Source: an uncultured cyanobacterium (GTDB taxonomy: Bacteria > Cyanobacteriota > Cyanobacteriia > Cyanobacteriales > Nostocaceae). From it: 64,000 nucleotides of DNA. Both the position numbers and the translations under genes were made by a program. This document shows positions 2,455-43,244 of the stretch, in pieces (within the stretch, counting starts at the first letter, position 1; every line of letters starts with the position of its first letter). The notes beneath the pieces were generated by a model. That model did not search any database. It was not told the DNA's origin and saw nothing but the letters and a program-made list of their open reading frames with translations. The stretch spans positions 4,896,001-4,960,000 of the forward strand of contig OY970166.1 in NCBI GenBank assembly GCA_963706595.1. Direction: 5' to 3'.

Positions 2455-2647
2455 CTTTAAGATTTACACACCGTACAAATAGAGCCTGTTATTTATTAAA
2501 CAGGACACCAAGTAGGATTTGAAAGATAATTTTCGCCCCATCAATGCTTCATTCCTACTGAGAACACACAGCAATAGCACATAGGTGAAAGTATTCAACA
2601 CCTAATTGTCAATTGCATTATCCCACTCGCTTCAAAGGAATCAGGAT

Positions 2648-3001
2648 ATGAGTTTGTACGAAAACATTGGTGGACAACCCACAATTGAAAAAGTAGTTGA
2701 TGCCTTTCACAAGAGCGTTATGGCAGACGGTAGCCTCAAAGGTTACTTCGCTAAAACCGATATGGCTAAACAACGCGCTCATCAAATTGCTTTCTTCTCT
2801 CAAATATTTGACGGACCAAAGCAATATGGTGGTCGTCCAATGGAAAAAACCCACACAGGTATGAAGTTAAACGACCAACACTTTGATGCTGTTGCCAAGC
2901 ATTTGGGTGCAGCAATGGCCTCAGCCGGAGTATCCGCAGAAAACAGCAGCGCTGCAATGGCTAAAGTCTCTGGCTTAAAGGCTTCTATTTTGAACAAATA
3001 G
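2648..3001 (+). CDS. glbN: cyanoglobin (group I truncated hemoglobin)
   Basis: MSLYENIGG...FF...GP..Y.GR.M...H..M....HFD 2/2 globin pattern; located between nifU and nifH as in Nostoc commune. Confidence 0.92.
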   Translation: MSLYENIGGQPTIEKVVDAFHKSVMADGSLKGYFAKTDMAKQRAHQIAFFSQIFDGPKQYGGRPMEKTHTGMKLNDQHFDAVAKHLGAAMASAGVSAENSSAAMAKVSGLKASILNK

Positions 3002-4327: not shown

Positions 4328-5690
4328 ATGACACCTCCAGAAAACAACAAGACTGTTGAAGAAAGAAAGGAACTTATTAAAGAAGTTCTCAGTGCTTACC
4401 CAGATAAAGCTAAGAAAAAACGCGAAAAGCACTTAAATGTATTTGAAGAAGGTAAGAGCGATTGCGGCGTTAAATCTAACGTCAAATCTCTTCCTGGTGT
4501 AATGACCGCTCGTGGTTGTGCTTATGCAGGTTCCAAGGGTGTGGTTTGGGGTCCTATTAAGGACATGATCCACATCAGTCACGGACCTGTTGGTTGCGGT
4601 TACTGGTCTTGGTCTGGTCGTCGTAACTACTACATTGGTACTACAGGTATTGATACCTTTGGTACTATGCACTTCACCTCTGACTTCCAAGAAAGAGACA
4701 TCGTTTTTGGTGGTGACAAGAAACTACTGAAATTGATCCAAGAATTAGAAGTACTCTTCCCTCTGAACCGTGGTGTATCCATTCAATCTGAATGTCCCAT
4801 CGGTCTAATTGGGGATGACATCGAAGCTGTAGCTCGTAAGGCTGCAAAAGAAATCGACAAGCCAGTTGTTCCAGTTCGTTGCGAAGGTTTCCGGGGTGTT
4901 TCTCAATCTTTGGGACACCACATCGCTAACGACATGATTCGTGACTGGGTATTCCCTAGATCCGATAAGGCTAAGGCTGACGGTTCACTGAACTTTAATT
5001 CTACTCCTTATGATGTAGCCATCATTGGTGACTACAACATCGGTGGTGATGCTTGGGCGAGCCGTATTCTTCTAGAAGAAATCGGTTTGCGCGTAGTTGC
5101 TCAGTGGTCTGGTGATGGTACTATCAACGAAATGTTGATGACCCCCAACGTGAAGATGAACCTCATCCACTGTTACCGCTCGATGAACTACATCAGCCGT
5201 CACATGGAAGAAAAATATGGTATTCCCTGGTTGGAATACAACTTCTTCGGTCCTACCAAGATTGCTGAATCTTTACGGGAAATCGCTTCTAAGTTTGACG
5301 AAAAAATCCAAGCAAACGCTGAGAAGGTTATTGCTAAGTATCAGCCGACAATGGATGCGATCGTTAACAAGTATCGCCCCCGTTTAGACGGTAAGACTGT
5401 AGCCATGATGGTTGGTGGTCTACGTCCTCGTCACGTTGTCCCAGCTTTCCTAGACTTGGGTATGAAGATGATTGGTACTGGTTATGAGTTCGCTCATAAT
5501 GATGACTACAAACGTACCACTCACTACATCGAAAATGGTACTATCGTTTACGATGACGTGACCGCCTACGAATTTGAGGAGTTTATCAAAGCCCTCAAGC
5601 CTGACTTAGTAGCTTCTGGTGTGAAAGAGAAGTACGTCTTCCAAAAGATGGGTCTACCTTTCCGTCAAATGCACTCTTGGGATTACTCCG
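4328..5690 (+). CDS. nifD: nitrogenase MoFe alpha chain, 5' segment (interrupted by nifD element)
   Basis: NifD sequence runs to ...QMHSWDYS, then homology is lost at GGATTACTCCG; joins in frame to 11714-11857 (about 501 aa). Confidence 0.98.
5680..5690 (+). repeat. nifD element left recombination site GGATTACTCCG
   Basis: Matches the 11-bp nifD element repeat known from PCC 7120; partner at 11704-11714. Confidence 0.95.
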
Positions 5691-6029
5691 AACCTAGCCA
5701 TAGGTCCTGAAATTCAATGACAGCAGCATTTTTTGACGGTGAGATAAAAAATAATTTCTTTTTAGTCTAAATGCAAGTTTTAGGATGATCTAGAAACTAT
5801 ATATTTGTGATGCTTTAAATAATATAACTCTTATCTGGGATAGTGTTGAGGAATTAATTAAATTTTGCTGAAATTAAAACTGTAAAATGAGCGACTATTT
5901 TGAGTGATATTTTTTTAGATTAAATGGTGCGATCGCATCATAGTTTGATTTCAGGAAGGCAGAAACCCTGAGATGTCAGGAGATTATGCCCAAGTAATTT
6001 ATAAGCTCACTAGGTAATTAATAAGCTTA

Positions 6030-6226
6030 GAGGATGTTTGTAAAGTCTAATTTATTACTAGCCCTGGCGACTAGAAGTTGCGGCTATACAGACAAAACCC
6101 GCCTGCGCGGGTTAAAAACCTTAATTCTTCATTAGTCCAGGTCGCTGGACTTTGCTTGTGTAGTAGCGTTCGCCTTTGGCGTTGCGAAGCAATATTATAT
6201 TCGCCCAAAACTTTTAAAACATCCTC
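6030..6226. mobile_element. MITE-like element
   Basis: TIR GAGGATGTTTGTAAAGT / ACTTTTAAAACATCCTC flanked by TTA on both sides. Confidence 0.7.
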
Positions 6227-6769
6227 TTAGAAACCTAAGTGATCAAGGTGTGGATCAAGTGCAACAAAACGATTACACGCATCTTTTAACTCTTGTGCGG
6301 CATGATTCCAGAAAAATAGCTCAACGGTAAAACCATCATCACGCAAAGTTTCAATAGCCGGTATAAAGTCGCCGTCGCCTGCTACTAAAGTAATAACATC
6401 TTCACCCTTATGCATTTTTGTATAAGCATCTCGCATCATCGCTGTCACAATACCTGTATCAACTTTTTTCTCTCTATTTGCAGCATTTCGATCAACAATT
6501 ATAGTTTCAAATCCTGCCCTCTCAGCGATTCCCCAGAGTGAATCATTTGCCGGAGGCCGCGAACCAAATAAAACTGCTCTCTGAATCTTGGCGGGGTCGC
6601 TTCCTGCTGTAAAGCTATGCAGTTTACCAAAATCAAGGCGATAGCTATTGTCGATAATGTTCTTGTTCATCGCATCATAAATATTCGCCACTAAAGCTTT
6701 CCGAACAGCACTAACACGTTTGCTTTCAATGAAAACATTGGAATTATCTACATACACAAAATTAGACAT
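6227..6769 (-). CDS. NYN/LabA (PIN-like) domain protein
   Basis: VYVDNSN, EKKVDT, LVAGDGDF and terminal F..L pattern of NYN domains. Confidence 0.85.
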   Translation of the reverse strand: MSNFVYVDNSNVFIESKRVSAVRKALVANIYDAMNKNIIDNSYRLDFGKLHSFTAGSDPAKIQRAVLFGSRPPANDSLWGIAERAGFETIIVDRNAANREKKVDTGIVTAMMRDAYTKMHKGEDVITLVAGDGDFIPAIETLRDDGFTVELFFWNHAAQELKDACNRFVALDPHLDHLGF

Positions 6770-6943
6770 AGGATTTTTAAACTTGTATAATTATTTACTT
6801 AATAATCAGATATATCATAGCCTAAAACAGTTCAGTTAAAGCTAAAAACTAAAACTGGTGTGAGTGAGATTGAGGAATGCAACTTCTTAACTTGATCAAA
6901 ATCTTGTTGGGTTTCGTTGTCACTCCACCCAAGTTACTGTGGT

Positions 6944-7522
6944 TCAATCTGGGAAAGCCGCACCAGTCATGGGATCACTGATATACAATCCCAGCGTGAG
7001 ACTACGCATGGCCTCATCCCAAACGGGTATTAGTTGCGCTGCTTGATCTGCCCAATAATCAAATGTAATCAAACACTGTACATTTGACCCCAAACCAATG
7101 CAAGTCCGTGAAAAAGCTTCCCGTGGTTCTTCCTGAGTGTCAATAAATTTAATCTCTGTCCACACAATTCTGGCAGTTTGGCGCTTGACGGTAATAATTT
7201 CTCCCCTAGCGATGACGTTGCGACTATCTTCTTCCATGATTTTCCTCAAAGTAGATTTTAGGGGAAATAAGCTCCAGTCACGGGAAGGCAGAGGATTGAA
7301 AGATACTTCCAAGCAGCAATCGTCTTTGGGCGGTTTTTGATCGCAGAACTTGAATGATTTTTCTTGTGGCTCAAAAACCCAATTTTGGGGGACATTGAGG
7401 CGAACAGCCCCCCGATCTGCTACAAAGATTTTATAGCCTGATGGAGATTCCCAGCGATGATCGGGTTTTAGTTCCAGGGTTTCTTTAATCCACTGGAGAT
7501 TGCTTTTTTTACGCTTTGCCAT
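6944..7522 (-). CDS. hypothetical protein (192 aa)
   Basis: Clean ORF; alpha/beta pattern weakly reminiscent of the PsbP/Mog1 fold. Confidence 0.75.
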   Translation of the reverse strand: MAKRKKSNLQWIKETLELKPDHRWESPSGYKIFVADRGAVRLNVPQNWVFEPQEKSFKFCDQKPPKDDCCLEVSFNPLPSRDWSLFPLKSTLRKIMEEDSRNVIARGEIITVKRQTARIVWTEIKFIDTQEEPREAFSRTCIGLGSNVQCLITFDYWADQAAQLIPVWDEAMRSLTLGLYISDPMTGAAFPD

Positions 7523-7739
7523 AGTATTTTTGCAAATGTTAGCGTAGGTTGTTGCAGGCGATCGCCCACTTCGTTAATCATACCAAATTGCTACTATTTA
7601 GGGATATTATTGAGCAATGGTGGAGAAACAAGTTTTTCAACTGTGATTTTTCCTATGAATGGGTTTAGATATTTTGGAATTTCAGATAAAGATTCTATTG
7701 GAGAAATTACCATAAAATCCCCTAAAAAACCCAAAAATC

Positions 7740-7768
7740 TTGACAAAACGCGAATTATCAAATATATT
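7740..7768 (+). promoter_or_regulatory. sigma70-type promoter of the FABP-like gene
   Basis: TTGACA-N17-TATATT ending 33 bp before ATG 7802. Confidence 0.55.
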
Positions 7769-7801
7769 CCTTTCAAATGTGAATTAAATGCAAATTTCAT
7801 C

Positions 7802-8200
7802 ATGAGTATACAAATTGCCGGAAAATACAGCTTTGTCTCCCAAGAGAACTTCGAGGAATACTTGAAGGCTGAGGATCTTGGGATGATCAAGCGAAATGTT
7901 TTAGCAAAAACCACTCCGGACATGATAGTGGAGATTGATGGCGATAACTTCACCGTTACGACCATCACGAACCTCAAGACCATCAAGATCAGCTTTACCT
8001 TGGGACAGGAGTATAAGTGCGATCCAGGAACGGACAAAGTTAACAACTACATCACCACTTTGGAAGGGGGTGACACCTTGGTGAGCAAAAACCTTGACGA
8101 TGACTCTTCCACGTCTGCGATGAAGTTCACCGACGATAATTTGATTATCACCATGACAGCGAAAGGAATCACTGCAACCAGAACATTCAAAAGAGCCTAA
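7802..8200 (+). CDS. intracellular fatty acid-binding protein (FABP/iLBP)-like, 132 aa
   Basis: GKYSFVSQENFEEYLKA signature, SFTLGQEY, C-terminal ATRTFKR; typical FABP length. Confidence 0.85.
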   Translation: MSIQIAGKYSFVSQENFEEYLKAEDLGMIKRNVLAKTTPDMIVEIDGDNFTVTTITNLKTIKISFTLGQEYKCDPGTDKVNNYITTLEGGDTLVSKNLDDDSSTSAMKFTDDNLIITMTAKGITATRTFKRA

Positions 8201-8320
8201 ACAAATAGGACTTGATATTCGGTGTTGCTGAATTTGAAAATGAAATGCCAAAATTACGTTTTTTGTTGCTTGCGCTTTTGTGTGTGAACCTCAGCAGGGC
8301 GTACTTTAAATCAGCAACGT

Positions 8321-8574
8321 CTAATTTTTAACTGAGTAATATCTTCAAAAGTAGGGTGTGTTGTCCCGTGGAGCAACGCACCACAGCAATAATTTTCTAG
8401 ATTGCGATCGCCTAACTTTTAACTGAGTGATATCTTCAAAAGTAGGGTGTGTTGTCGCGTAGCGCAACGCACCGCAGCAATAATTTTCTATATTGCGATC
8501 GCCTAACTTTTAACTGAGTGATATCCTCAAAAGTAGGGTGTGTTGTCGCATAGCGCAACGCACCGCAGCAATAA
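8321..8574 (+). repeat. 91-bp tandem repeat (about 2.8 units), each with a GTAG-type REP; HIP1 in the two full units
   Basis: GTAGGGTGTGTTGTC...GCAACGCACC at 8351, 8442, 8533; near-identical intervening sequence. Confidence 0.9.
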
Positions 8575-8612
8575 TGGGCATCCTAGAAAACAAACCCCAT
8601 TTTCTCACATCC

Positions 8613-9164
8613 ATGTCCAACTACCGCAGACCTGACATTTCCGGCGGAACCTACTTTATTACCCAAGTTACCTATCAAAGACAACCCTGGCTTTGCTCAG
8701 ATACTGGACGTATTGGCCTGCGTGCTGCTTTTAATCATGTCCGCAAGAATTACCCTTTCTCAATAGATGCCTTTGTTCTACTCCCTGATCACTTTCACGC
8801 CCTATGGACTCTACCTGAAGGCGATCGCAATCTATCTATGCGGATGCTTTTAATTAAACGTTTTGTAACTAAATACTACGGTCATCAGTTAGGGCTTGAT
8901 GTTGATATTACGCGATCGCGCCAGAAGCGAAAAGAAGGAAACCTCTGGCAACGCAGATTTTGGGAGCATTTAATTAGAGATGATGTTGATTTTGCCAATC
9001 ATTGCGATTACATCCACTACAATCCTGTACGGCATCAGCTTTGTGAATCACCGCAACAATGGGCGTTTTCGAGCATTCATCGTTTAATCGAGCAGAATAT
9101 TTACCCGTTAGATTGGGGTAGCAATGGGGAAGTGCAGCTTTCCTCGGACATTTGGGATGTTTAA
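8613..9164 (+). CDS. REP-associated tyrosine transposase (RAYT/TnpAREP, HUH Y1 family)
   Basis: GGTYFITQVT, PDHFH (HUH), WQRRFWEH, DYIHYNPV; flanked by inverted REPs. Confidence 0.92.
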   Translation: MSNYRRPDISGGTYFITQVTYQRQPWLCSDTGRIGLRAAFNHVRKNYPFSIDAFVLLPDHFHALWTLPEGDRNLSMRMLLIKRFVTKYYGHQLGLDVDITRSRQKRKEGNLWQRRFWEHLIRDDVDFANHCDYIHYNPVRHQLCESPQQWAFSSIHRLIEQNIYPLDWGSNGEVQLSSDIWDV

Positions 9165-9170
9165 GATGGC

Positions 9171-9202
9171 GGTGCGTTGCGCTACGCGACAACACACCCT
9201 AC
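9171..9202 (-). repeat. GTAG REP copy, inverted, directly after the RAYT (further copies 9879-9909, 11383-11461 pair, 37899-37928, 43762-43841 pair)
   Basis: GGTGCGTTGCGCTACGCGACAACACACCCTAC is the reverse complement of the upstream REP. Confidence 0.88.
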
Positions 9203-9264
9203 AGGAAAGATGCTCTTGTGCTAGTTTTCTCATATATGAGTTTATCTGTATATATTCAGAAGTT

Positions 9265-9699
9265 TTAGAATTCATCCAGCATTCTTTTTAAGCTCTCTAA
9301 ATCTGAGCCGTCTATATATTCTAAATTAGTAACTGCTAAAGTATGTGGTATATTAAGAGAGTTTATTAATTCTTGAATTTGTTGCAAATGCAGTGAGTTT
9401 TGTTTTAGAAGATTGTTAGTGATTCTTTGTTGTTCAATGATTTGGATTTTGGTAGATTCTAATTCTCTTTTAATTTTGAGTAACTGCAATCCAATACCTT
9501 CGTATTTATAACTAATAATATTTTGTTCCGTATCCAAATCTGGAATAAGTGTAGAAATTTCTTTTATTCTTGCCCACCTGCGTTTAAGTTTATTAATTTC
9601 AGCAGTTCGATCAGTCCCAAGTTTTAATTCCACGAACTTATGGGCAGCAATAGCTTCAATAAATCCTTTACGTAATTCCTCCAAATCATCTTCTTGCAT
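9265..9699 (-). CDS. hypothetical coiled-coil protein
   Basis: 144-aa AT-rich ORF; no family recognised. Confidence 0.6.
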   Translation of the reverse strand: MQEDDLEELRKGFIEAIAAHKFVELKLGTDRTAEINKLKRRWARIKEISTLIPDLDTEQNIISYKYEGIGLQLLKIKRELESTKIQIIEQQRITNNLLKQNSLHLQQIQELINSLNIPHTLAVTNLEYIDGSDLESLKRMLDEF

Positions 9700-9921
9700 A
9701 GTTTATAATTATGTGGCAATTTATTTAAGTTTAAACTTAAGCTAGCTGACGAGCAACGGTAATTATATCTAATTTATGTAACCCTCTTCTATCACTCTGA
9801 GGAAAGAAAAATAATAATTTATGATTATTTGATTGGCGAAAGCAACGAAAATGGGTTTAAATGCACGCAGGAAAGAACTAGGGTGTGTTGTCGCGCAGCG
9901 CAACGCACCACATAAATTTAC

Positions 9922-11223
9922 TTAACTACGCTTATAAACCAACTCCATCCTCAACTTCTCAACCTCCATTTTCAACCTTTCATTCTCCATCATCAACCTG
10001 CCATTCTCCTCTCGAATCACCTCAACTTCATTCCTCTTACTCAAAGCCTGATTAATCGCCAACTTCCGCATATCCAGAGAGAACCAACGCTGATAAGTTT
10101 CCGTATGCACTTGCACACTATGCCCCAAATTATCCGCCGCCGCTTTAATTGGTATACCTAAAATATGCGCCCGAATCGCCCAAGCGTGACGTAAATCATA
10201 AGGCTTAAAATCCAAACCAATTTTACGAAACCACCAACTAACCCGTTGAGTTAAAGCCGTTATTTCAGCATGATTAGTATTATCTTTCTTACTAATTGCA
10301 GTTGCCAACATCTCTAAATATTTAGGATTTCTTAAATCAAATTCCGAAATCCATTGTTTATATAAAGGTAAAGCTTCCCTTTCCCCCGTTTTACAATCTT
10401 TATGGACTTTCCATGTTAAATCTGCATTCTCTTGACTTAACCACCAATCAATATTAGGATTAATAAATAATTCCCGTGGACGTAAACCGAAAACTGCTAA
10501 CATTCCATAAGTCCAGCGCCAAAGCTGCCAGCTATCTTTAACATTTTGGTTAACTTGATTACCCCTGTTAGTTAAATAATTCTCAAACTTAATAATTCCT
10601 GCGAATATTTCAGCATCTGTCGGTATATTCCGGGGATTATTCTCCGGGATTTTAGAATATTGAGATAAATCAATTTCAATTTTAAACGTCTGACAAAAAG
10701 CTGATATAGCTCTCGCAGCATTATATTTTGCCCATTCTTTATCAATTTTTTCAATTGAAATGATTAAATTTTCAGGTGTTGCTAAATCTTGAGCATCAGT
10801 AAATCGCTTGGTGCGGGAAAAATAATAAAAAAAAGTATGTTCGCTTTTCGTTGTGCGCTGATGAGTTTTAAAATACTCCGCTTCAAATTGTGCTAGTAAC
10901 TCACCTATAGTTTTACATTCTTTTGTAATCGCATCATTACCTAAATATTTATCATTCCATTCAAAAGATTTACGAGCAATTAACTTGCCTAATTCATAAG
11001 CTTCTTCCTCAGCCGTCTTGAGTCCATCCAAGTTAGCAGGAATATTCAAGCTGAGATTATATTGCTTTTTCCCCGTTCCTCTGGTGTCCTTGTCTCCAGG
11101 TTTAATTGGTAACGTCGCCCGTAATTGCAGACTTCCATTTGATGCTCTCACGGTTACTCTTGCTTTTGCAGACTTCAAACGCAGATTTACTTGCTCTAAC
11201 TCTAATAGTAATTTTGTGATCAT
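9922..11223 (-). CDS. xisA: nifD element excisase, tyrosine recombinase XisA
   Basis: LQLRATLP, FGLRPRE, YDLRHAWA, LGHS...H..TY catalytic motifs; located at the nifK-proximal end of the element. Confidence 0.97.
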   Translation of the reverse strand: MITKLLLELEQVNLRLKSAKARVTVRASNGSLQLRATLPIKPGDKDTRGTGKKQYNLSLNIPANLDGLKTAEEEAYELGKLIARKSFEWNDKYLGNDAITKECKTIGELLAQFEAEYFKTHQRTTKSEHTFFYYFSRTKRFTDAQDLATPENLIISIEKIDKEWAKYNAARAISAFCQTFKIEIDLSQYSKIPENNPRNIPTDAEIFAGIIKFENYLTNRGNQVNQNVKDSWQLWRWTYGMLAVFGLRPRELFINPNIDWWLSQENADLTWKVHKDCKTGEREALPLYKQWISEFDLRNPKYLEMLATAISKKDNTNHAEITALTQRVSWWFRKIGLDFKPYDLRHAWAIRAHILGIPIKAAADNLGHSVQVHTETYQRWFSLDMRKLAINQALSKRNEVEVIREENGRLMMENERLKMEVEKLRMELVYKRS

Positions 11224-11324
11224 CTGTTCTCTTTGCTGGTGTGCTTGCAGACTTCAACCAAGAAAACTGCTGTCGGTAGATGAAAATGATTAGACTTGGA
11301 AACCCCGCCAAATTGAGGCTCTGT

Positions 11325-11535
11325 CTCCCCTCTTTGCTTGCGGGGCTAAGGTATACACACAAGTCCAAAAACCTTTCATTTTGTAGGGTGCGTTATGGAC
11401 TTTAGTCCTAACGCACCGAAGTTTAGGATGGTGCGTTGCGCTACGCGACAACACACCCTACAAAAAAAGATTTGGGGTAATTCAGTCATTTGTGTGTACA
11501 CAGTAGGTTTGCACAGAAGGGGTTGGGTGTGGGGT
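11325..11535. repeat. nested repeat insertion (GC-rich palindrome > TACACACA inverted repeat > REP pair) in the ancestral xisA 5' end
   Basis: CTAAGGTATACACACAAGT 11346-11364 / ATTTGTGTGTACACAGTAG 11488-11506 enclose the REP pair 11383-11461. Confidence 0.7.
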
Positions 11536-11624
11536 GCATTGTGGCGTAACTAATTAACCGAACTTGTCTTCACCCTGATTATGCATCGCTATGATTTAGC
11601 CTATATTTAGCCTAAAAATAAATT

Positions 11625-11671
11625 TGTGATCAGCGAACAATGTTTATCACTGACACTGCTTACTGCAAACA
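11625..11671. promoter_or_regulatory. three tandem TGT-N9-ACA type sites upstream of xisA (NtcA-binding region)
   Basis: TGTgatcagcgaACA, TGTttatcactgACA, TGCttactgcaaACA at a 16-bp period; triple NtcA (VF1/BifA) sites are known upstream of xisA in PCC 7120. Confidence 0.75.
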
Positions 11672-11703
11672 TTCAGATATTCAAAACTATTAAAGCATAA
11701 CAA

Positions 11704-11714
11704 GGAATACTCCG
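11704..11714 (+). repeat. nifD element right recombination site GGAATACTCCG
   Basis: 10/11 match to the left site; followed directly by Nif[10 protein letters not shown]. Confidence 0.95.
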
Positions 11715-11857
11715 GTCCTTATCACGGTTATGATGGCTTCGCTATCTTCGCTCGTGATATGGATTTGGCACTCAACAGCCCAACTTGGGCATTAATTGGC
11801 GCTCCCTGGAACAAGAAAGCTCAAGCTAAGAAGGCTAAGGCTAAAGCAACAGCTTAG
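11714..11857 (+). CDS. nifD: nitrogenase MoFe alpha chain, 3' segment
   Basis: [25 protein letters not shown]...ATA* (47 aa); not in the ORF track. Confidence 0.96.
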
Positions 11858-30341: not shown

Positions 30342-31442
<1,101 letters not shown>

Positions 31443-31558
31443 GTAACGAGTGCAATCCTCATAATGTTACTCAAGAACTTGTTTTATAAAGCTTTTCTGG
31501 TATGAGATAACATTTTATTTTCACCACTTCAGTTTATAAATAAGGGAATATCTAGGGA

Positions 31559-33062
31559 ATGAGCGGACAAAATCAAAATCAGGGTAATTGCGAGGGGAGA
31601 TATTCCACATCTACAGATGAATATGCAAACGCAGACTCAACCGACTGGTTCGCCGATATTTTTGCAGATTTTGAGCCGCAGAACACCACAGACGGCAGCT
31701 ATAGGGGAACAATGGCGAAAATCAAAGCGACGGAATTACAGTATCAAGCAGTTTTTGAGCAGAAGTTAGTCGAAGCTAATACTAATTTAAAAAGGGAGAG
31801 AATAAGAGTTAGCATTAAACAAACTGGTAATTCTCTCCAATTACGAGCTACGCTACCGTTAAAACCAGGCGATGGCAGACTCAGGTAAAGAAAAAAAGCA
31901 GTATGATTTGTCTCTGGGGATACCAGCAAATTTAGAGGGACTGAAAACTGCAATTGAAGAAAGTTACGAATTGGGTAAATTAATCGCTCGTCATACTTTC
32001 CAGTGGAATGAGAAATATTTAGGAATTAAATCTAGAGAGAAGCAAGAAATAAAAACCATTGGTGAATTATTAGATACATTTGACGAAAAATATTATCAAA
32101 CCCGTCAGAGAACTATAACCAGTCAAAATACTTTTGCTAACTATATATCTGTAATTAAAAGAAACTTGCCTCTCACCCATTTAGCCACAAAAGATAATTT
32201 TGAGGAAATTATTAATTCATTTCAGGGGAATAAAAAAAATGAACTAATTGCGGTAACTTCTGTTTTGATTAAAACCTTTAATTTAGGATTTAAACTTGAT
32301 GTCACACGGGATAATGTCACCCCAGCCCATAGAGAAATTCCTGAAGATGATCAGATAATATCTGCTTTTGACCTATTTGAAAAATTCGCCCTCAACCGCA
32401 AAAATACCAATATTAGTGATGAAATTGACACTTGGGAAATGTGGCGTTGGGTATATGGAATGTTGGCGACTTTTGGGTTAAGACCAAGGGAACTATTTGT
32501 ACAACCAGATATTAATTGGTGGATGTCTCCCCAAAATATAGACCATACTTGGAAAGTGAATAAAAATACAAAAACTGGATATCGAGAAGTTATCCCCTTT
32601 GTACCTGAATGGATAGAATTATTTGATTTACAAAATCCCAAACCATTAAAGATTTTAGAGAAAAAGGTTACAAAAATCGCATCTGTGCAAAATATTAATT
32701 GGATGCGGAGAGATATATCCAGATGGTTTCGGAAAGTGGGTATTGAGTTTCAACCCTACGATTTACGGCATGGTTGCGCGATTAGATCGCATCTTCAGGG
32801 AATACCTATTAAGGCCGCAGCAGACAATTTGGGTCATACTGTTGATGAACATACAAAAACCTATCAAAGATGGTTTGGGATTGAAAACCGGAAAAAAGCC
32901 TTTGGTGAGGTAATTAGTCAAAAGTCTTTAATTGAGTTGCAGAAGAGTGAAATATTGGCGCTACGGACGGAGAATGAAAGGTTAAAGTTGGAAGTTGAAA
33001 AATTGAAATTTTTGGGTAACAAGAATTTAGAGGAGTGGGAACAGGTTTATCATCACGGGTAA
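31559..33062 (+). pseudogene. xisC: hupL element excisase XisC, +1 frameshift near 31879 (real or sequencing error)
   Basis: ORF 31559-31888 ends LQLRATLPLKPGDG; ORF 31872-33062 continues SGKEKKQYDLSL with intact FGLRPRE, YDLRH, LGHT...TY motifs; colinear with XisA in this window. Confidence 0.88.
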
Positions 33063-33066
33063 GAAC

Positions 33067-33135
33067 ATCTAGAAAATTCTGTATAATGTCCTAATTTGGA
33101 TGTTATTATACGGGAAATTTCTGGATATCAATGAT
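33067..33135 (+). promoter_or_regulatory. imperfect inverted repeat containing TGTATAAT, shared with 40219-40284
   Basis: TCTAGAAAATTCTGTATAAT...ATTATACGGGAAATTTCTGGA. Confidence 0.5.
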
Positions 33136-33255
33136 AAATCTAACGAAAAGCTTCTACTTATGTACAAAAAATGAGGTACACTTTATTTTGAGACATAAAG
33201 TAGCAATCAAAAACCAATATTAGAATGTAACTCATAATAAAGGAATCTGCTGTAT

Positions 33256-34290
33256 ATGACATTGAAGAACAGATTTGTTAAAGTTCTAGAGCAAACAAAG
33301 GGTGAACGGGAAATACACAATTTCTTGAAGAAAGAACCTTTACTTGTTTGGGCAACTTTTATGAATTGTGGGGGACATTCTGATTATGTCATTTCTGAGT
33401 TCTCTTTAAGTGGAAAATATCGTGCTGACTTTGTTGTAATGCAATCGTTTTCTGGAGGCTGGAATGTTGCATTTATAGAGTTAGAGCCAGTTGATTTAAA
33501 ACCTTTCAAAAATGATGGAAGTCCATCTGACAGATTAGATGGTGCTATAAAGCAGATTAATAACTGGCGCAATTTTGAGGAAGATGAGGGACCATCTTTG
33601 CGTTCACACTTAGCCGATATAGCTAAAAAGCATGATATGTTGTATCCTGAACACAATCTGGCGCGAGAACCGTGGTGTGTCAAGATGCCACTACGCGATC
33701 CTAGAACCTATTTGTGCTGCGAATATTTTATCGTTATGGGGAGACGTAGCCACTTTGATGAAGAGCTTATCCATGTAAAATCAAAATTTGTTCGACATCA
33801 CAATGCTAAAATACTAACCTATGACCGTTTCATAGACGTTGCTGAGAAGTTAAACCAACGAAATGAATACTACAAAAGCAGAAAGATAGAAAAAGAAGAC
33901 AAAGATTTTCTAGAGCAGTTTGCTGAAAATCCAGAACAATTTAGTATTTTTGATAATAGAAATATTGATAAGTATCCAAGTGAGATAAATGTTCATGGAA
34001 CTTGCTACAAGGTACAGCTTATCGAGGAAAGAGATGGTTGTGTAGTCAATATTCTCGGTACTTCCTATGAAATTTTTGAAGATCGGCGTACATTTAGTCT
34101 CAACCGAATCGAGCCTGATGGTTTAGGGTTAACCGTAGCGGTCAGTATAGAGTCTTTGGCTGCCGCAATACAACTTGCTGAAATTTATGAGCGACTCATC
34201 TACTTTCACATAGATACCAAGCACTCGCTTGACTTTGTAGATGAATGTTTACAGCCTTTAAGAGAAAATCCACCGTATAAAATCGAGTAG
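33256..34290 (+). CDS. DUF4263 / Shedu-like PD-(D/E)XK nuclease with C-terminal extension
   Basis: EREIHNFLK, EF.L...YRADFV, FIELE, AIKQI..W, IVMGRR, ILTYD pattern. Confidence 0.75.
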   Translation: MTLKNRFVKVLEQTKGEREIHNFLKKEPLLVWATFMNCGGHSDYVISEFSLSGKYRADFVVMQSFSGGWNVAFIELEPVDLKPFKNDGSPSDRLDGAIKQINNWRNFEEDEGPSLRSHLADIAKKHDMLYPEHNLAREPWCVKMPLRDPRTYLCCEYFIVMGRRSHFDEELIHVKSKFVRHHNAKILTYDRFIDVAEKLNQRNEYYKSRKIEKEDKDFLEQFAENPEQFSIFDNRNIDKYPSEINVHGTCYKVQLIEERDGCVVNILGTSYEIFEDRRTFSLNRIEPDGLGLTVAVSIESLAAAIQLAEIYERLIYFHIDTKHSLDFVDECLQPLRENPPYKIE

Positions 34291-34309
34291 GCGATCGCTA
34301 ATCTTGTAG
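34291..34309 (+). repeat. 19-bp direct repeat GCGATCGCTAATCTTGTAG (second copy 35510-35528)
   Basis: Exact copies flank the DUF4352-like gene. Confidence 0.85.
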
Positions 34310-34537
34310 TGGCGTGACAAGCTTAAAATGTTGCAAAAAAATTGTAGGTTGGGTTGACGTAAGGAAACCCAACATCATTGGTCGCGTTGGGTTGCTTAAG
34401 TCTGGTTGTGGGTGGTAGTTCAGAATTCTAGGTTAGGACATTAAAGCTTGAAGACGTTAGTTCATAATTCAGCGTGGGAACAATGATTCTATACATACTG
34501 AATTACGGCTTACTCAAAAGACAGCGAGGTTATCGGC

Positions 34538-35459
34538 ATGGTTGGCTTTACAGACAAATTCAAATCTCTTGTAAATCAGGCACAGCAAAAGATCACAGAG
34601 GTCCAGAGCAATGAACAGTTAAAAGATTTAGTTGGTCAGGTACAAAAGAAGGTTTCGGAGTACTCAGATATTGCTCAGACGAAGCTAGAAGAGTACAAAG
34701 CAAACTTAGAAAAGCAAAGATTTGAAACTGCTGCTGCTCACGCATCTACTCACAAGTACCAGAAAGCGATTAATACTCTAAAGGCGATTCCTGCTTCATC
34801 CGAATTGTACGAGGAGGCGCAACAGAAAATTGTAGAGTATGTCAACGCTTCGGCTGAATATGTGATTCAGCAAGCAACTCAAATGATCGAGCAAGGTCTT
34901 TACAATGAAGCAATTGCCTCTCTAAAAACAATTCCTGAAGAAGCCGTCTCATATATAGCAGTTCAGGAAAAGATTTCTGAATATGTAAATGCGTTTGAGT
35001 CGCTAATCAAAAAGCACAAGAATCTTATTCCCATACTTTACAGTGGGAGGATTATTGCAGCAGCTTTTGTGGATCAAACCATCCATTCAGTCGGCAAGAT
35101 TGAGCGATCATGCCTCATTTATAACTCGCTTGGAAGTACATACGCCGATGGAGAATTCCTCATTATTCGACTCATCCTTCGGAATGATGGTAAGAAAGCT
35201 CGCACGATTTCGGCTTCAATGATGAACATAGTTGACTCCCAAGAACGTGAGTACAGTGTTTCTAGCAAGGGGACGACAGACTCTTCAAATGAAAGGAGAT
35301 CAAACCGTTGAGTTTTTGGCTAGTGAGATTCAGCCAGGGTTACAAAAAACGATTACTATCGTATTTGATGTGCCTGTGGGAGCAAACAGTTTGAGCTTGA
35401 AAGTACCTAGCAATGGTTGGGGAGGTTCAGCAATTTTGCCTTTGTCGTTAGCTGTTTGA
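34538..35459 (+). pseudogene. helical-repeat + DUF4352-like protein, +1 frameshift near 35280
   Basis: ADGEFLII.L...N.GK, VDSQEREY in frame A; EIQPGL......VFDVP in frame B. Confidence 0.7.
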
Positions 35460-35626
35460 AATTCACATGGATGCTACATTAAAACGAGACAAGTCGCAAC
35501 CTAACAAGTGCGATCGCTAATCTTGTAGGGGGCATTACATTTCATTAATGTACCTTTTTGATGCTTATTATTTATGCAACACGCTTTTTTGCTAAACTAT
35601 AATCAGGGAAACAGCAAGATGAGATT

Positions 35627-35866
35627 ATGAACTTAGATACAATTCAACAAGATATTGCGTCTCTTCCTCCCGATGCACAACTAATCATAGTGGAACTCGT
35701 AGAAGTCCTGAAAAAACGCTACCTTTTGAATCAACACGAATCTTCAGAAAATTCCTCGCAAGACTGGTCAGACTTTATCGGTTGCATAGAAGCTGAAACA
35801 GACCTCTCAAAAAACCATAAAAACTACTTAGACCGTGAACTTAACCAAAAATATGATCATAGTTGA
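35627..35866 (+). CDS. putative antitoxin
   Basis: Small ORF overlapping a PIN gene; similar layout to 27475-27750. Confidence 0.72.
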   Translation: MNLDTIQQDIASLPPDAQLIIVELVEVLKKRYLLNQHESSENSSQDWSDFIGCIEAETDLSKNHKNYLDRELNQKYDHS

Positions 35867-36278
35867 TACAGGCTTTTGGTTAGCTCTTGCTAATAAAAAA
35901 GATGCAGTTCATATATCCGCCAAAAAACGATTTCAAGATTTAGCTAATCAGCAATTTATTACAACCTGGTGCGTCGTCACGGAAACCTGCTATCTATTAC
36001 AAAAAAGAGTAGGAGTAGATGCTCCAAAAATCTTTATTCATAAAATTTCTACAGGAAAGCTACAAATCTTTGATCTCAAACAACATCATTGCCAGCGTAT
36101 TGAAGAACTGATGGAAAAATATAAAGACTTACCGATGGATTTAGCCGATTCCTCTCTCGTTATCCTGGCAGAAGAATTAGGCCATGGCCAAATTTTATCG
36201 GTTGATTATCGAGACTTCAACACCTATCGCTGGAAAAATACAGAACCGTTCGATAACCTCTTTCAGGAATTTTTATGA
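35853..36278 (+). CDS. VapC-like PIN domain toxin
   Basis: MIIVDTGF, VVTET, MDLADSS, SVDYRDF. Confidence 0.9.
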   Translation: MIIVDTGFWLALANKKDAVHISAKKRFQDLANQQFITTWCVVTETCYLLQKRVGVDAPKIFIHKISTGKLQIFDLKQHHCQRIEELMEKYKDLPMDLADSSLVILAEELGHGQILSVDYRDFNTYRWKNTEPFDNLFQEFL

Positions 36279-36371
36279 CGTAGTGCGATCTCTATTCCTT
36301 CGGAACGCTACGCACTTGAAAAAATAATTGCGACAGAAACAACCAAGCACACTAAGATTCAGTGTTATTCT

Positions 36372-36740
36372 TCAGGCAGCTTTTTGAGAATTTTCAGAGG
36401 ATGGTTCAGCCAGCATCGGTTCAATATCCTGGCTTTTGTCTCTTTGGATAAATTCATCTAGTAATTGAAAAAAGTAATCAAATGCAGCTTTTTCATCAAT
36501 ACAGGTGAGTAAAATAATTTTATCCCAAGCGTTAACAGTATGGATAGATAAGCGGTTTTGTAGCCAAGGTTGAAAGTTTTTATAAAAATCACTTTCAGTT
36601 TCAGTATTAGTAATACCTAATTCAGAGCGAGAAAAGCGATATCCCAAAATAAACATCCGTAAATTACTAATAGATGCTGTTCCCAAATATAAGCCTGGTT
36701 TAGTTTTAATTTTTTCCAGTAAATTAAATAATGCACTCAT
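36372..36740 (-). CDS. hypothetical protein, candidate immunity partner
   Basis: Directly downstream of the papain-fold toxin; KPGLYLG...F..WL...W motif. Confidence 0.65.
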   Translation of the reverse strand: MSALFNLLEKIKTKPGLYLGTASISNLRMFILGYRFSRSELGITNTETESDFYKNFQPWLQNRLSIHTVNAWDKIILLTCIDEKAAFDYFFQLLDEFIQRDKSQDIEPMLAEPSSENSQKAA

Positions 36741-36764
36741 TCAGTTTAACTCCATTAAACATTT

Positions 36765-37148
36765 TCAAAATTCTTCTATTACTTCTATTTTAAACTCATT
36801 AGATAGAGAAGTAAAATCTTGAATCCAGTCATCTGGGTATAGTCCTTGTGGGGAAAGATTGTCGAAAATTTTGCCAAAAACTTCAACACCGTAATGAACG
36901 CCATTTTCCGTAATAGTTTCAAAGCAACCTTGTTTTTCCAGGCGATTACTCAAAATAAAGTCTTCATTGTCGTATATGGTCGAAAGTCGCCAAAGTTTAC
37001 CAGGAATTTTACGTTGTTGTAGCCACTGTTTGAGTGTCTTGGCACATTTTTGGCAATGAAGTAATGGAAATCGAATGACAAGATTACCAATTGCTTGATG
37101 AATTTCAGCAATGGCTAAATCATCCGGTAAATTATTCAGAAACAGCAC
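36765..37148 (-). CDS. papain-fold toxin (Tox-PL-2-like)
   Basis: C..CA, NGVHYGVEV, IFDN catalytic-type C/H/D. Confidence 0.7.
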   Translation of the reverse strand: MLFLNNLPDDLAIAEIHQAIGNLVIRFPLLHCQKCAKTLKQWLQQRKIPGKLWRLSTIYDNEDFILSNRLEKQGCFETITENGVHYGVEVFGKIFDNLSPQGLYPDDWIQDFTSLSNEFKIEVIEEF

Positions 37149-37338
37149 CTCCTAAAAAATGTTGATCTTATTTTAGTCTTGGATAAACTATTCATAAGTA
37201 GTCGTGCAAAATAAATTTTATATTTGGGAGAGGGAACAGATAAGGAATACAGAGATTTTTGTTTCTTCCGAAAATGTTAAATTAATTTTGCTCAGGTTGA
37301 CTTGTCAGTTCGCTCAATATCCATTTTCTTGTGCTTCC

Positions 37339-37788
37339 TTAATTGCGATCGCTAGTATTGCGAGCAGTAAATTTCAAACATAATACTTGCTGCCCAGTAG
37401 GCTCGTGCAATTTCTCTTCTAGATGCTCAAAACCGTACCGAGAGTAAAATTTCCGACCAATTGAGTTTTCTTTAAATACCTCAACCACTAGGTCGCCGTG
37501 TAATTCTTGTGCTTTATCCATTAGGGCTTTTCCCACACCCTTGCCGTGGTAATCTGGCTGTAGGAATATGGCTCCCACCTCGTTGCCCATTAGTGCAATA
37601 AAGCCCTCAACATTACCGTCGATATCTGCAACCCATGTATCTGTATTAGGTATGTATATTTCAGCTACGTTTATTCGCTCTTGAGCTATAAATTCGTCAG
37701 TCATAAACGGATGTGCTAATCGAGTTGCTATTTCCCAAGAGGAGAGAACAGCATCTAAGTCAGAATTTTCATATTGTCGGATCTTCAC
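37339..37788 (-). CDS. GNAT acetyltransferase
   Basis: HGKGVGKALM, N..GRKFY.RYGF. Confidence 0.9.
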   Translation of the reverse strand: MKIRQYENSDLDAVLSSWEIATRLAHPFMTDEFIAQERINVAEIYIPNTDTWVADIDGNVEGFIALMGNEVGAIFLQPDYHGKGVGKALMDKAQELHGDLVVEVFKENSIGRKFYSRYGFEHLEEKLHEPTGQQVLCLKFTARNTSDRN

Positions 37789-37865
37789 GAATCTATTTCC
37801 TTGTAAAACTTTTGACGATTTTTAGTTATGATGATTCATCATTATATCTATCTTAGGAGAATATA

Positions 37866-37891
37866 GCGAAGCGCTGCTGCAAGCAGATCGC
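37866..37891. repeat. short insertion within a HIP1 site (SDR5-like)
   Basis: GCG-AAGCGCTGCTGCAAGCAG-ATCGC. Confidence 0.55.
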
Positions 37892-37964
37892 CGATTTTGT
37901 AGGGTGCGTTAATGGAATGTAACGCACCTTATTACGTTTTCATCAAACAGTAATTTCATGCTGA

Positions 37965-38186
37965 TCAGGTCGAAATCATCAGCCGACATTCACGGTCAGC
38001 CGCATAAGCAATACAAGCTTTTAAATCTTCTCGCGTCAGGTAGGGAAAATCATCAAGAATTTCCGCTTCACTCATCTCGGAAGCTAGGTATTCAAGCACC
38101 TCATAAACTGTAATTCGCAAGCCACGTACACAAGGCTTACCACCGCGTTTATTCGCTTCGATGGTGATATAGTTTCTGTAATCCAT
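37965..38186 (-). CDS. DUF433 family antitoxin (orphan)
   Basis: KRGGKPCVRGLRITVYEVLEYLA...DFPYLTREDLKAC. Confidence 0.88.
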   Translation of the reverse strand: MDYRNYITIEANKRGGKPCVRGLRITVYEVLEYLASEMSEAEILDDFPYLTREDLKACIAYAADRECRLMIST

Positions 38187-38482
38187 AATGTGGCTATGCA
38201 TTCTTGCCAACTTCTTTGATTTTACCATGTATTTCTGCTAAAAACTCAATAAATCAATACTTCTATACTCAGGGATAAATGTAACTATTTTAATCATTTT
38301 ATCGTTATTTGCGTATTTATATTGAGAAAAAAGCGGGTTTATATTCCAATAGTAAGAAAATAATTATACTTAACCACTTGCGTTGGACTTCCCCTAATTG
38401 CGATCAGCGTTCGCGGAGCGTGTCCCCTTGGGATTCAGCTTTACACCAAAGGCGATCGCCTATTTATTTCCAGTCCAAACAC

Positions 38483-40033
38483 TCACGCCCGAATCACAGT
38501 AATCCGACGTTGATTTTCCGTCACCACAACCTGAGTTGATAAACGTTCTTCCATTGGTAGGGCATTTTTACGCCTATCAAATACAAATAACCAACCAAAA
38601 TCTAACCCCAAACGGGCTAAATAGGATTCTAACTGCTCAATACCCTCAGCTTGGGGGTCACGCTTTTTCTCCCGCCATACCTTTAACTCAATACCTAACG
38701 TTACACCTTTGTAACGCAGACATAAATCCATTCTGTCACTACCAATTGCATACTCCCTTTCCAAGATTCCACCACCATTGACAACACGATGCAAGAAAGC
38801 CATTAATACTATGTGGGGAGCAATTTCATGGTAGGCAGCGCTACTTAATAACGGTTCTCCGTGCTGTCGCCAAAATTTGATAAATGCTTCCAACAAAGCA
38901 TCTATATTTAATTCACCTCTTGGGGTCAACCAACTAGGACTAATATGAGGTAAACTATCCTGAGTTCCTTGCACTAAAACGCGGGGAATGACTTCACGAT
39001 AAATGGGGTTAGAAATAACCAATCCCCCCGCAGGATCACGTCGCAATAATCCTAAATCAATTAAATATTGGCGATCATCCGCTAGGGTATCGGGTAATGT
39101 TTGTCCTGCTAAAATCGGTTCAATAATATTTTTAACTCGTTTTTCTCTAAGTTTTTCAGCTAGACTATCCAAATGAGTATCTTGACGAGCAATTAATATT
39201 TCCTTAGCCTGTAGAATATGTTCTTTGGTAATAGCAATACTTCTATCCTTAACCATTTTTTCCACAACTTCTTTAGCAAGAGCATTCACTAACCAAGGTT
39301 GTCCTTGGGTTAAATCAAAAGCTGTTGCTGTGGCTTCAGGAGTGAAAATTTGTCCGGTTTCTTCTGTATGTTGGTGATATAGTTCTACAACTTCCTCAGC
39401 ATTAAAATTTCTCAGAGTAATGGAAGTAACTTTAATATTAAAAGGACTAGATGTATTTAATCTGTCACTACCACCCGATGCCACCTTATAATCCCGCACA
39501 TCCCGTAAACCAATTAATCCCACCGATGAAGGAAAATTTTCTGGACGACTGCGATAGCCATCTCGTAACTGTCTTAAAACTGAAATTAGTGTTTGGTCTT
39601 GTAGCGAATCAATTTCATCTATAAATAATAGTAACGGACGATTTATAGCTCGTGACCAAGCTCTTAAATTTTCGCCAATTCTCTGCCCAGGAACATTATA
39701 AACCCAAGTTGAGGGTTGTAGTTCTGGGGGTAAGCTATCCTCAATTGTATTCCGCCAAGTTCCCAAAATCGCTAATTCTGCTGCACCTGGGTCATGATTA
39801 AAAGCACTTCCCACCTCTACTGATACCATTACTGCTGCATAACGTCCTGTAGCGGTAAGTTGCTGTGCTAGGGCTAACATTGCTGTGGTTTTCCCTGTTT
39901 GTCGCGGTGCATGAAGGACAAAATAACTTTCTTGTTCAATCAGCATTGATAAGTCAGGGAGACGACTTGTTGCTGGGAGTGTATAGTGTTTTTCAGGTTT
40001 ACATGGACCTGCAATATTGAACCAGCGAGACAT
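38483..40033 (-). CDS. AAA ATPase with C-terminal PD-(D/E)XK nuclease-like domain, copy 1
   Basis: HAPRQTGKTT Walker A, LFIDEID Walker B, EY...RMDL...IELK. Confidence 0.88.
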   Translation of the reverse strand: MSRWFNIAGPCKPEKHYTLPATSRLPDLSMLIEQESYFVLHAPRQTGKTTAMLALAQQLTATGRYAAVMVSVEVGSAFNHDPGAAELAILGTWRNTIEDSLPPELQPSTWVYNVPGQRIGENLRAWSRAINRPLLLFIDEIDSLQDQTLISVLRQLRDGYRSRPENFPSSVGLIGLRDVRDYKVASGGSDRLNTSSPFNIKVTSITLRNFNAEEVVELYHQHTEETGQIFTPEATATAFDLTQGQPWLVNALAKEVVEKMVKDRSIAITKEHILQAKEILIARQDTHLDSLAEKLREKRVKNIIEPILAGQTLPDTLADDRQYLIDLGLLRRDPAGGLVISNPIYREVIPRVLVQGTQDSLPHISPSWLTPRGELNIDALLEAFIKFWRQHGEPLLSSAAYHEIAPHIVLMAFLHRVVNGGGILEREYAIGSDRMDLCLRYKGVTLGIELKVWREKKRDPQAEGIEQLESYLARLGLDFGWLFVFDRRKNALPMEERLSTQVVVTENQRRITVIRA

Positions 40034-40218
40034 GGCATTTTAGCAGTTAGCGAACTATTTCAGTTTAGACGATTTTAGGGTTGGGGATGGCAAAAAGGGC
40101 TAAGTGGGGATTTTTGTTTGTTTAAACATCGGGTAGATATACCGAATCATTCCGTTTATTACCCGGAAAAGGATAATAGCCAGAAAATTTATTGCTATCC
40201 AGCCAGATTTAGGTAGTT

Positions 40219-40284
40219 ATCTGGAAATTTTCTGTATAATAGGTGGATATTGACGATATACGGAAAAGTTCTTGATATCTTGAT
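40219..40284 (+). promoter_or_regulatory. imperfect inverted repeat containing TGTATAAT, shared with 33067-33135
   Basis: TCTGGAAATTTTCTGTATAAT...TATACGGAAAAGTTCTTGA. Confidence 0.5.
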
Positions 40285-40319
40285 GTACAGCCGTACAAGT
40301 TATACATATAAGCAAAGAG

Positions 40320-41411: not shown

Positions 41412-41438
41412 TTGCCAACCTACTCCTTATCAAAATAC

Positions 41439-42995: not shown

Positions 42996-43228
42996 GGGAC
43001 TTTGGCAGTTAGCGGACACTTTGAGTTTAGACGATTTTGGGGTTGGGGAAGGCAATGTAGGGAAGAATTAGGTAATGTCTGAGAAAACCAAAAAACTTTT
43101 AGCAGAGAAAAATCAATGGATTGGCTGCTAGATACCACTTCAGAATCTCCTGATTTAAGGAAACGCTAGGGAATCATTGCACCTATCCTGACAAATCCTG
43201 ACTATATAAGCAATTCCCCAATTTATCA

Positions 43229-43244
43229 CCATATAACTGCTGTG
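43229..43244 (-). repeat. hupL element recombination site CACAGCAGTTATATGG
   Basis: Matches the 16-bp hupL element repeat known from PCC 7120. Confidence 0.95.

Follow-up and report, generated by a model that had tools for sequence, protein, structure and literature searches.

An open reading frame resembling an animal fatty acid-binding protein (FABP) lies inside an excision element of the nitrogenase gene nifD in a cyanobacterium, and we asked what it encodes, where it came from and what it could do for its host. The genome carrying the window, by which we mean the whole 64,000-nt stretch analysed here, is a single contig (G000). Three features define the locus:

7802..8200, plus strand: FABP/intracellular lipid-binding protein (iLBP) gene; 132 aa, 14.6 kDa, pI 4.8, no signal peptide, R127, F129 and M107
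7740..7768, plus strand: sigma-70-type promoter TTGACA-17-TATATT, kept in the G125 and Planktothrix L001 copies
7723..8266, plus strand: mobile cassette of promoter, ORF and short tail, delimited by DNA identity to other loci

The encoded protein (P0001) runs from ATG 7802 to the stop codon TAA at 8200. A sequence-only reading of this DNA had proposed a 132-aa ORF with the FABP signature; the motifs it quoted are present, and both profile and sequence searches agree with it. P0001 scored 26.6 bits against Pfam PF14651 (cut-off 25.4), and phmmer aligned its residues 5–132 to human FABP4 without gaps (E 1.5e-20, 35% identity). PDB sequences with E <= 0.001 numbered 240, headed by FABP4, squid ReP1-NCXSQ and FABP3. 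The AlphaFold2 model, built from a 27-row alignment (pLDDT 94.9), is predicted to have a strand at 7–15, helices at 17–23 and 28–35 and then nine further strands, giving ten strands with a helix-turn-helix lid; Foldseek placed it on FABP4 with a TM of 0.91 and an rmsd of 1.5 A. When the model was searched against 48,161 representative chains, the first nine rows were iLBP-type (Z 20.5–15.2, the top six 18–20.5), with nitrobindin-type and bacterial barrels at Z <= 10.5 and classical lipocalins at about 6. CRBP IV (Z 19.8), L-BABP (19.5) and UnaG (18.9) compare with 20.5 for the best FABP. Neither P0001 nor any other part of G000 (94% complete) matched PF00061 or PF08212. As the earlier reading held, a hydropathy scan found no hydrophobic leader (maximum KD 0.65 over the first 35 aa vs 2.3–2.8 in signal-bearing relatives). 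An alternative start at TTG 7610, giving a 196-aa ORF, was dropped, as it would enclose the promoter and homologues begin at the Met. The N-terminal extensions in database entries P0004, P0006, P0018 and P0024 are translated promoter region, that is, wrong starts. By its modelled fold and its matches, the window ORF is almost certainly an iLBP/FABP.

The binding site is less conventional. FABPs carry a carboxylate triad, Arg106/Arg126/Tyr128, according to the part of PMC6646235 consulted; in PMC5843346 we found no mention of Tyr128. The FABP4 triad positions are M107, R127 and F129 in P0001, so that one of the three residues is kept: the C-terminal RxF to which the earlier reading had pointed is indeed present, but the triad lacks its second arginine (M107). 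Because the triad is incomplete, we class P0001 from its residues as an iLBP and not as a group IV FABP of the FABP3/4/5/7/P2 type, and since only R127 remains, the canonical mode of carboxylate binding may be weakened or altered.

The surroundings of the gene are those of a nifD interruption, with the following parts:

4328..5683, plus strand: 5' part of nifD
5680..5690, plus strand: left recombination site, 11 bp, 7-bp core at 5684–5690
5684..11707, unstranded: nifD interruption (excision) element, 6,024 bp, at nifD position 1356
6227..6769, minus strand: NYN-domain gene (Pfam), cargo
6944..7522, minus strand: hypothetical element gene, 192 aa, divergent from the FABP gene; upstream of the FABP gene in G125 too and present in G006 and G008
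8351–8382, 8442–8475, 8533–8566 and 9169–9202: REP-like repeats, with more copies at 9879–9910 and 11429–11461
8613..9164, plus strand: REP-associated tyrosine transposase, flanked by inverted REP-like repeats
9265..9699, minus strand: AT-rich hypothetical gene, 144 aa, cargo
9922..11223, minus strand: tyrosine recombinase, 433 aa, which we take to be xisA-type from its context and likeness; Pfam integrase match under cut-off
11704..11714, plus strand: right recombination site, core at 11708–11714
11708..11857, plus strand: 3' part of nifD

The proposal that the FABP gene sits within a nifD excision element held up: short direct repeats (cores 5684–5690 and 11708–11714) bound a segment with the xisA-type tyrosine recombinase on the opposite strand at its far end, and deleting 5684–11707 restores a NifD of 501 aa. 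Position 1356 fits the common variant, placed at 1355 +/- 2 in the available text of PMC4874684. The joint 5683 to 11708 was seen in contigs of three of four runs, although element-free strains could also supply it. Coverage over both junctions, which had been proposed as a check, was obtained in part. The upstream junction is bridged by an independent-looking contig (X1 record 4), which carries 7607–8206 with 8 differences, although X1 may be connected with the source sample; at the downstream junction the joints seen are all split, with sides of 29 nt, and both junctions are never covered by one piece. Contamination or misassembly was ruled out by the single-contig genome and the syntenic slot in G125. 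Cargo differs among the five same-genus elements fetched from ten genomes searched; in G006 and G008, which have the 192-aa gene and the REP edge in common with G000, an unrelated gene of 356–391 aa replaces the FABP gene. Because another gene lies between the same edges there, the FABP position is, on this comparison, a swappable cargo slot. Within 8318–9202 the transposase is single-copy, and the genome contains 54 copies of a 17-nt piece of the repeat; the REP-associated transposase may help cargo exchange.

The promoter that the earlier reading assigned to the gene was likewise sustained. It matches 11 of 12 consensus positions, comparable sites numbering 151 genome-wide (~0.0014 per 100 nt of one strand), and both hexamers are near-invariant in G000, G125 and L001, three loci of differing context (L009 equals L001 there). 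DNA homology among the loci starts at or just before the -35 box, further upstream the sequence diverges, and the G1163 copy lacks the promoter block. A scan found no terminator. As for composition, the gene had been called more GC-rich than its flanks. This is true with respect to non-coding flanks (45.8% over 7861–7980 and 44.4% over the ORF vs 32–35%), but the ORF equals nifD, nifK and nifH (44–45%), and elevated total GC was therefore discarded as a sign of transfer. The real anomaly is GC3, which is 0.61 in the ORF vs 0.35 +/- 0.075, a value that 0.2% of 132-codon slices cut from 2400 long ORFs attain; none of 3501 long ORFs comes up to the FABP gene in both C3 and four-fold GC. Strong expression was discarded as the cause, since psbA has a high C3 but low G3 and four-fold GC (0.88, 0.22 and 0.25, vs 0.65, 0.55 and 0.56 in the FABP gene). 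Judged by composition, the codon usage remains foreign to the host. Over three tested pairs dN/dS was 0.18, 0.49 and 0.33 (Fisher p 2e-10, 0.01 and 7e-5), reaching 0.49 vs Planktothrix, and length and frame are preserved across genera; the gene is very probably intact and under purifying selection. RNA-library contigs lie over the ORF in both RNA runs (X3, 7948–8184; X5, 7861–8028), but these runs were chosen via this gene and available as contigs only, so that the cover does not demonstrate transcription; absence of RNA contigs on neighbouring genes carries no weight.

Close homologues with 69–85% identity occur in Anabaena (P0003, P0017), in Planktothrix (P0007, P0019, P0026 and others) and among metagenome proteins; P0018 is present on 127 contigs. 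Matches are otherwise scarce. None of ten same-genus genomes has one; the family yields 2 among 389 genomes, G000 being one of them, an order sample 2 among 401, and the family of G1038 3 among 144. By Pfam, a model that misses some members, a phylum sample gave 1 of 401, and a search with the alignment gave 1 of 401. Since the gene is missing from most relatives searched, any benefit would be conditional. At the DNA level the cassette is 82% identical to G125 over 7734–8266 and 81% to Planktothrix L001 over 7723–8219. The G125 copy, too, lies in a nifD element, where it is ordered and oriented as in G000 with respect to the 192-aa gene and xisA. The L001 copy sits after a HAD hydrolase gene and those of G1163 and G1064 have other neighbours, and in the stretches read no nif genes lie beside the L001, G1163, G1064 or G607 copies. 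Compared with two Planktothrix-type copies, dS was 0.34 and 0.49, whereas all four control orthologue pairs of the same family gave 1.97–3.06; against G125 it was 0.65 for the FABP gene, 0.48 for nifD, 1.02 for xisA and 1.10 for the 192-aa gene. As the FABP dS is far under that of the controls, we are confident from these distances that the cassette moved recently between cyanobacterial families. Vertical inheritance of diverse homologues, which would have removed the claim of horizontal transfer, is thus not the pattern, given 2 carriers in 389 genomes and the dS contrast. The two origins that had been offered, a eukaryote-derived gene or an overlooked bacterial clade, each proved partly right: the gene appears eukaryote-derived, and it also forms a small bacterial clade, one that has spread laterally. 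Divergent members of the subfamily are found in Limnospira (P0045, 42%) and G1064 (P0036, 46%; L016:4413-4811), the latter with a host-like GC3 of 0.37 and a -35-like hexamer upstream. This composition suggests an older acquisition by G1064, and because such members exist the first entry may be older than the codon usage implies. At a Planktothrix-like locus (L009:3391-3705) the FABP ends after residue 66 (P0014), either a truncated copy or an assembly artefact.

Where did the gene come from? The closest named animal proteins are those of the copepods Lepeophtheirus (P0011, 59%) and Caligus clemensi (C1C136, P0012, 58%), and a search of 1.84 billion representatives gave 668 matches, the best 150 of which were examined. 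For the trees, 51 of 202 proteins were excluded from a larger set as fragments or duplicates, and later trees used 58 or 59 hand-picked rows. In the 58-row tree the P0001 subfamily is set apart from canonical FABPs (support 97/92) and holds copepods, marine-eukaryote catalogue proteins, Aphanomyces, Limnospira P0045, G1064 P0036 and other intronless proteins. Its internal backbone mostly has support below 80, and a tree of the exon region alone did not resolve the branching; therefore, the trees by themselves give no direction. Gene structure is more telling. Many short records match P0001 over residues 25–82 only, and all 25 picked subfamily fragments (19 clusters) have Val at position 83, where full-length members have Tyr, after which similarity ends. 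The break falls in the same column in 4 of 10 canonical-type FABP fragments, and P0043 and P0053 have an insertion at residue 24/25. We take the two break positions to be animal intron sites 1 and 2, as in FABP4. The fragments would then be exon 2 of intron-bearing genes as output by gene callers, a reading of protein records only, in which the Val after residue 82 is explained because a GT donor would encode it. In animal FABP genes four exons predominate and most invertebrate intron positions match, while genes without introns also occur (PMC3796463, in the sections consulted). Over residues 25–80 the fragment P0196 matches P0001 at 80% identity, compared with 73–75% for the Planktothrix copies. 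Furthermore, Arg106 is kept in copepods and their neighbours and is Met, Thr or Ile in all eight named or genome-anchored cyanobacterial members of the subfamily. The intron-site break and Arg106 therefore place the ancestral state on the animal side.

With the copepod affinity and the foreign codons, these signs bear out the eukaryotic, probably animal, source that had been proposed, and we hold an ultimate animal origin to be likely, with good confidence. The window gene is intronless, as expected of a bacterium. The immediate donor could be a protist, because Aphanomyces and signal-peptide proteins belong to the subfamily. The opposite polarity, an old bacterial or protist lineage with animals as recipients or merely as sister group, would accommodate these oomycete members, the diverse intronless full-length members (40–57%) on metagenome contigs among the matches listed, and the failure to reject the close group, Limnospira and G1064 as a single clade (AU p 0.13). 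We nevertheless consider it improbable, as canonical animal FABP fragments break at the same apparent intron site, it is the animal members that retain the ancestral Arg106, codon usage is foreign and matches are rare in cyanobacteria (3/144, 1/401 and, by Pfam, 1/401).

Capture does not seem to have happened once. Another iLBP, P0189 of a Snowella genome (G607; L008:1492-1908), is 30% identical to P0001 and finds its best solved match in CRABP2 (E 1e-21). It sits among ordinary cyanobacterial genes in one of six genomes of that genus, and related metagenome clusters have up to 23 members; its single-sequence fold has a pLDDT of 38.7, and its family assignment rests on sequence. In AU tests, forcing Snowella and the window clade together was rejected (p 1e-5), whereas grouping the close group, Limnospira and G1064 as one clade was not rejected, at the p value given above. 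Because the single-origin constraint is rejected, iLBPs were, on these trees, captured more than once by cyanobacteria. Leaving P0005 and P0008 outside the cyanobacterial clade was also rejected (p 0.014). These proteins have 206 aa, an N-terminal hydrophobic segment like a membrane anchor and a eukaryotic look, and their position suggests onward transfer to a microbial eukaryote. Two Streptomyces linear plasmids have canonical-type iLBP genes near transposases (L005:5998-6387; L038:6857-7390), the second at the centre of an inverted duplication bordered by IS3 transposases. A broader picture, which we put forward tentatively and at rather less than even chances, is that planktonic cyanobacteria repeatedly took iLBPs from crustacean grazers, at least in the window and Snowella clades, and employ them, their pocket remodelled, as intracellular lipid sinks; they would exchange them across families and have handed one on to a microbial eukaryote (P0005/P0008), the oomycete and Streptomyces genes being parallel captures.

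Among viruses, the contigs searched with P0001 (three confirmed stretches), A1, P0007 and P0191 yielded no locus, the phage search gave no FABP match and BFVD returned only a weak likeness to a hepatitis E virus domain. Matches of P0032 to three 28-aa stretches in a phage holin-like ORF were judged to be chance (one of three loci read), as was a G051 match (E 2e-4) inside a long repeat protein; the L002 match is 24 aa long. In an ESM Atlas cluster of 63 members (133 aa, score 0.92) the commonest known phylum is Nucleocytoviricota; iLBP-like genes may occur in giant viruses. In Aphanomyces astaci, an oomycete that infects crayfish, the copepod-type subfamily is represented by a membrane-anchored protein (P0046, P0208-P0215).

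Compared with known systems, the window protein resembles animal iLBPs (FABP4, FABP3, myelin P2, CRBP, CRABP; PF14651/PF00061) in its length, its ungapped alignment to FABP4, its ten strands with lid and its want of a signal peptide, and differs in that its gene is bacterial, intronless, driven by a sigma-70 promoter and carried on a nitrogenase excision element, with Arg106 changed to Met and Tyr128 to Phe. With copepod FABPs it shares, beyond 58–59% identity, Tyr9, the Asp-Pro-Gly-Thr turn, Tyr83 and Arg-x-Phe; the copepod proteins, however, keep Arg106, are two residues shorter than the cyanobacterial ones and have a pI of 6.6 and 8.7 vs 4.8 for P0001. Bacterial barrels and lipocalins (Rv2717c, Rv0813, DUF3598, Blc) have beta-barrel architecture in common with it, but nitrobindin-type and DUF3598 barrels reach Z 9–10.5 at 8–12% identity vs 18–20.5 for the top six iLBPs, and Blc lipocalins have a lipoprotein signal, eight strands and PF08212/PF00061, unlike P0001 with its ten strands and neither leader nor those Pfam matches. 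The closest precedent comes from Microcystis aeruginosa PCC 7806, whose ActM/PfnM are a eukaryote-type actin and profilin on a genomic island, a kind of transfer called rarely documented in the part of PMC3254629 at hand. There, too, a bloom cyanobacterium took up a eukaryotic gene on mobile DNA; the FABP differs in being found in several genera, captured more than once and, by homology, a lipid carrier and not cytoskeletal. CYP110 on the nifD element of Anabaena PCC 7120 is likewise fatty-acid-related nifD cargo acting in vegetative cells, as proposed for the FABP, but it is an enzyme of unrelated fold and widely conserved in heterocystous cyanobacteria (PMC1079853, available sections). The iLBP/FABP family is stated, in the text seen of PMC6646235, as not reported from bacteria. 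A literature search, in which subscription journals were thinly covered and supplements lay outside, found no paper on cyanobacterial FABPs; by term search, 'bacteri' is absent from PMC7193176, and 'FABP' and 'lipocalin' from a 2023 review of cyanobacterial fatty-acid handling (PMC10114076). Several homologues are already labelled automatically by NCBI as 'lipocalin/fatty-acid binding family protein': the sequences are public, and it is their animal origin and spread that we did not find described.

What might the protein do? The explanation that we consider best, at somewhat better than even chances, is an animal-derived mobile FABP serving vegetative cells as a fatty-acid sink. An intronless copy of a crustacean-type animal FABP would have entered freshwater or brackish planktonic cyanobacteria, acquired a sigma-70 promoter and come to move as a cassette of ~0.5 kb, which in the window genome would fill the nifD element's variable cargo slot. 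The encoded protein is predicted to be a soluble cytosolic ten-stranded barrel with a helix-turn-helix lid and one hydrophobic ligand, and would act in vegetative cells as a sink and shuttle for long-chain fatty acids in free form, polyunsaturated ones above all. Whether set free by lipases or absorbed from the water, these would be held away from membranes and photosystem II, and the free fatty-acid pool would be made smaller. Planktothrix, Limnospira and Snowella are not known to form heterocysts, and a role outside heterocysts is quite likely because most carriers lack these cells, the element is dispensable for them and CYP110, cargo of the Anabaena element, is vegetative. In Anabaena 7120, the nifD-borne CYP110 binds long-chain fatty acids and is present in vegetative cells and absent from heterocysts, and a strain cured of the element forms normal heterocysts (PMC1079853, as far as consulted). 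Polyunsaturated fatty acids are toxic to cyanobacteria, damaging photosystem II after entering membrane lipids via acyl-ACP synthetase (PMC8508968, in part), and the defence described in the portion of PMC10114076 consulted is efflux. That free fatty acid is the main ligand is a guess, to which we give slightly less than an even chance.

Origin and spread would be unchanged if the pocket had instead been retuned to sequester a neutral or weakly polar ligand such as retinal, retinol, another apocarotenoid, a pigment breakdown product or a hydrophobic allelochemical. Cyanobacteria make retinoids, all cyanobacterial subfamily members have replaced Arg106 by Met, Thr or Ile with Phe at 128 throughout, retinoid-, bile-acid- and bilirubin-binding iLBPs lie within about 2 Z of the best FABP, and the separate Snowella protein best matches CRABP2 (E 1e-21). 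However, the best sequence matches of P0001 are FABP4, squid ReP1-NCXSQ and FABP3, Arg127 is retained in nearly all members, and the copepods also have Phe128, making that change older than the transfer; a retuned pocket seems to us rather unlikely, though a serious contender. Less probable still, and in our view doubtful, is a near-neutral passenger, a recent capture riding mobile DNA with weak expression and with constraint mostly inherited from its donors. The very patchy distribution (0/10 same-genus and 2/389 family genomes), the freely exchanged cargo slot, the Planktothrix-like P0014 truncated at residue 66 and a dN/dS vs Planktothrix of up to 0.49 would all fit, but length and frame are maintained across genera, dN/dS is below 1 in all three pairs, the promoter is kept where upstream DNA is not, and more than one iLBP capture took place (AU p 1e-5).

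The earlier reading had linked the gene to the heterocyst glycolipid. As a carrier of fatty acyl precursors for that lipid, expressed from the excised circle, the protein would explain why both located nostocacean copies (G000, G125) are in nifD elements with order and orientation alike, yet this shared site is explained by the common descent of the cassette, which has a longer common 3' tail in these two. The link did not stand: most carriers, Planktothrix, Limnospira and Snowella among them, lack heterocysts, the copies of Planktothrix L001, G1163, G1064 and G607 have no nif neighbours in the stretches read, and the slot is swapped in two same-genus genomes. Given also the normal heterocysts of the element-cured strain and the absence of CYP110 from these cells (PMC1079853, partial text), we think a heterocyst role very improbable. 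The likelihood left beyond free fatty acid, other ligand, passenger and heterocyst carrier falls to roles outside those considered.

Animal-to-bacterium transfers are rarely documented, and several independent signs speak for one here: the gene occurs in multiple assemblies, has recruited a promoter, is under purifying selection and keeps foreign codons, and relatives of up to 80% identity apparently bear introns. The protein is a testable candidate for the tolerance of bloom cyanobacteria to toxic free fatty acids and a possible tool in fatty-acid-producing strains, and would be a second fatty-acid-related cargo bearing on what nifD elements do for vegetative cells. Finally, some other features came to light. 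A second element appears to split hupL (43155-43739 and 30342-31430, minus strand; window 30342-43739), with what we take, from likeness, to be an XisC-like recombinase (31872-33062) and two similar AAA-type genes (38483-43055). Between nifU and nifH lies a gene at 2606-3001, presumably globin-like of the cyanoglobin type. In G125, an element carrying an XisA-like recombinase of its own appears to interrupt nifH as well (L007:17586-19567).
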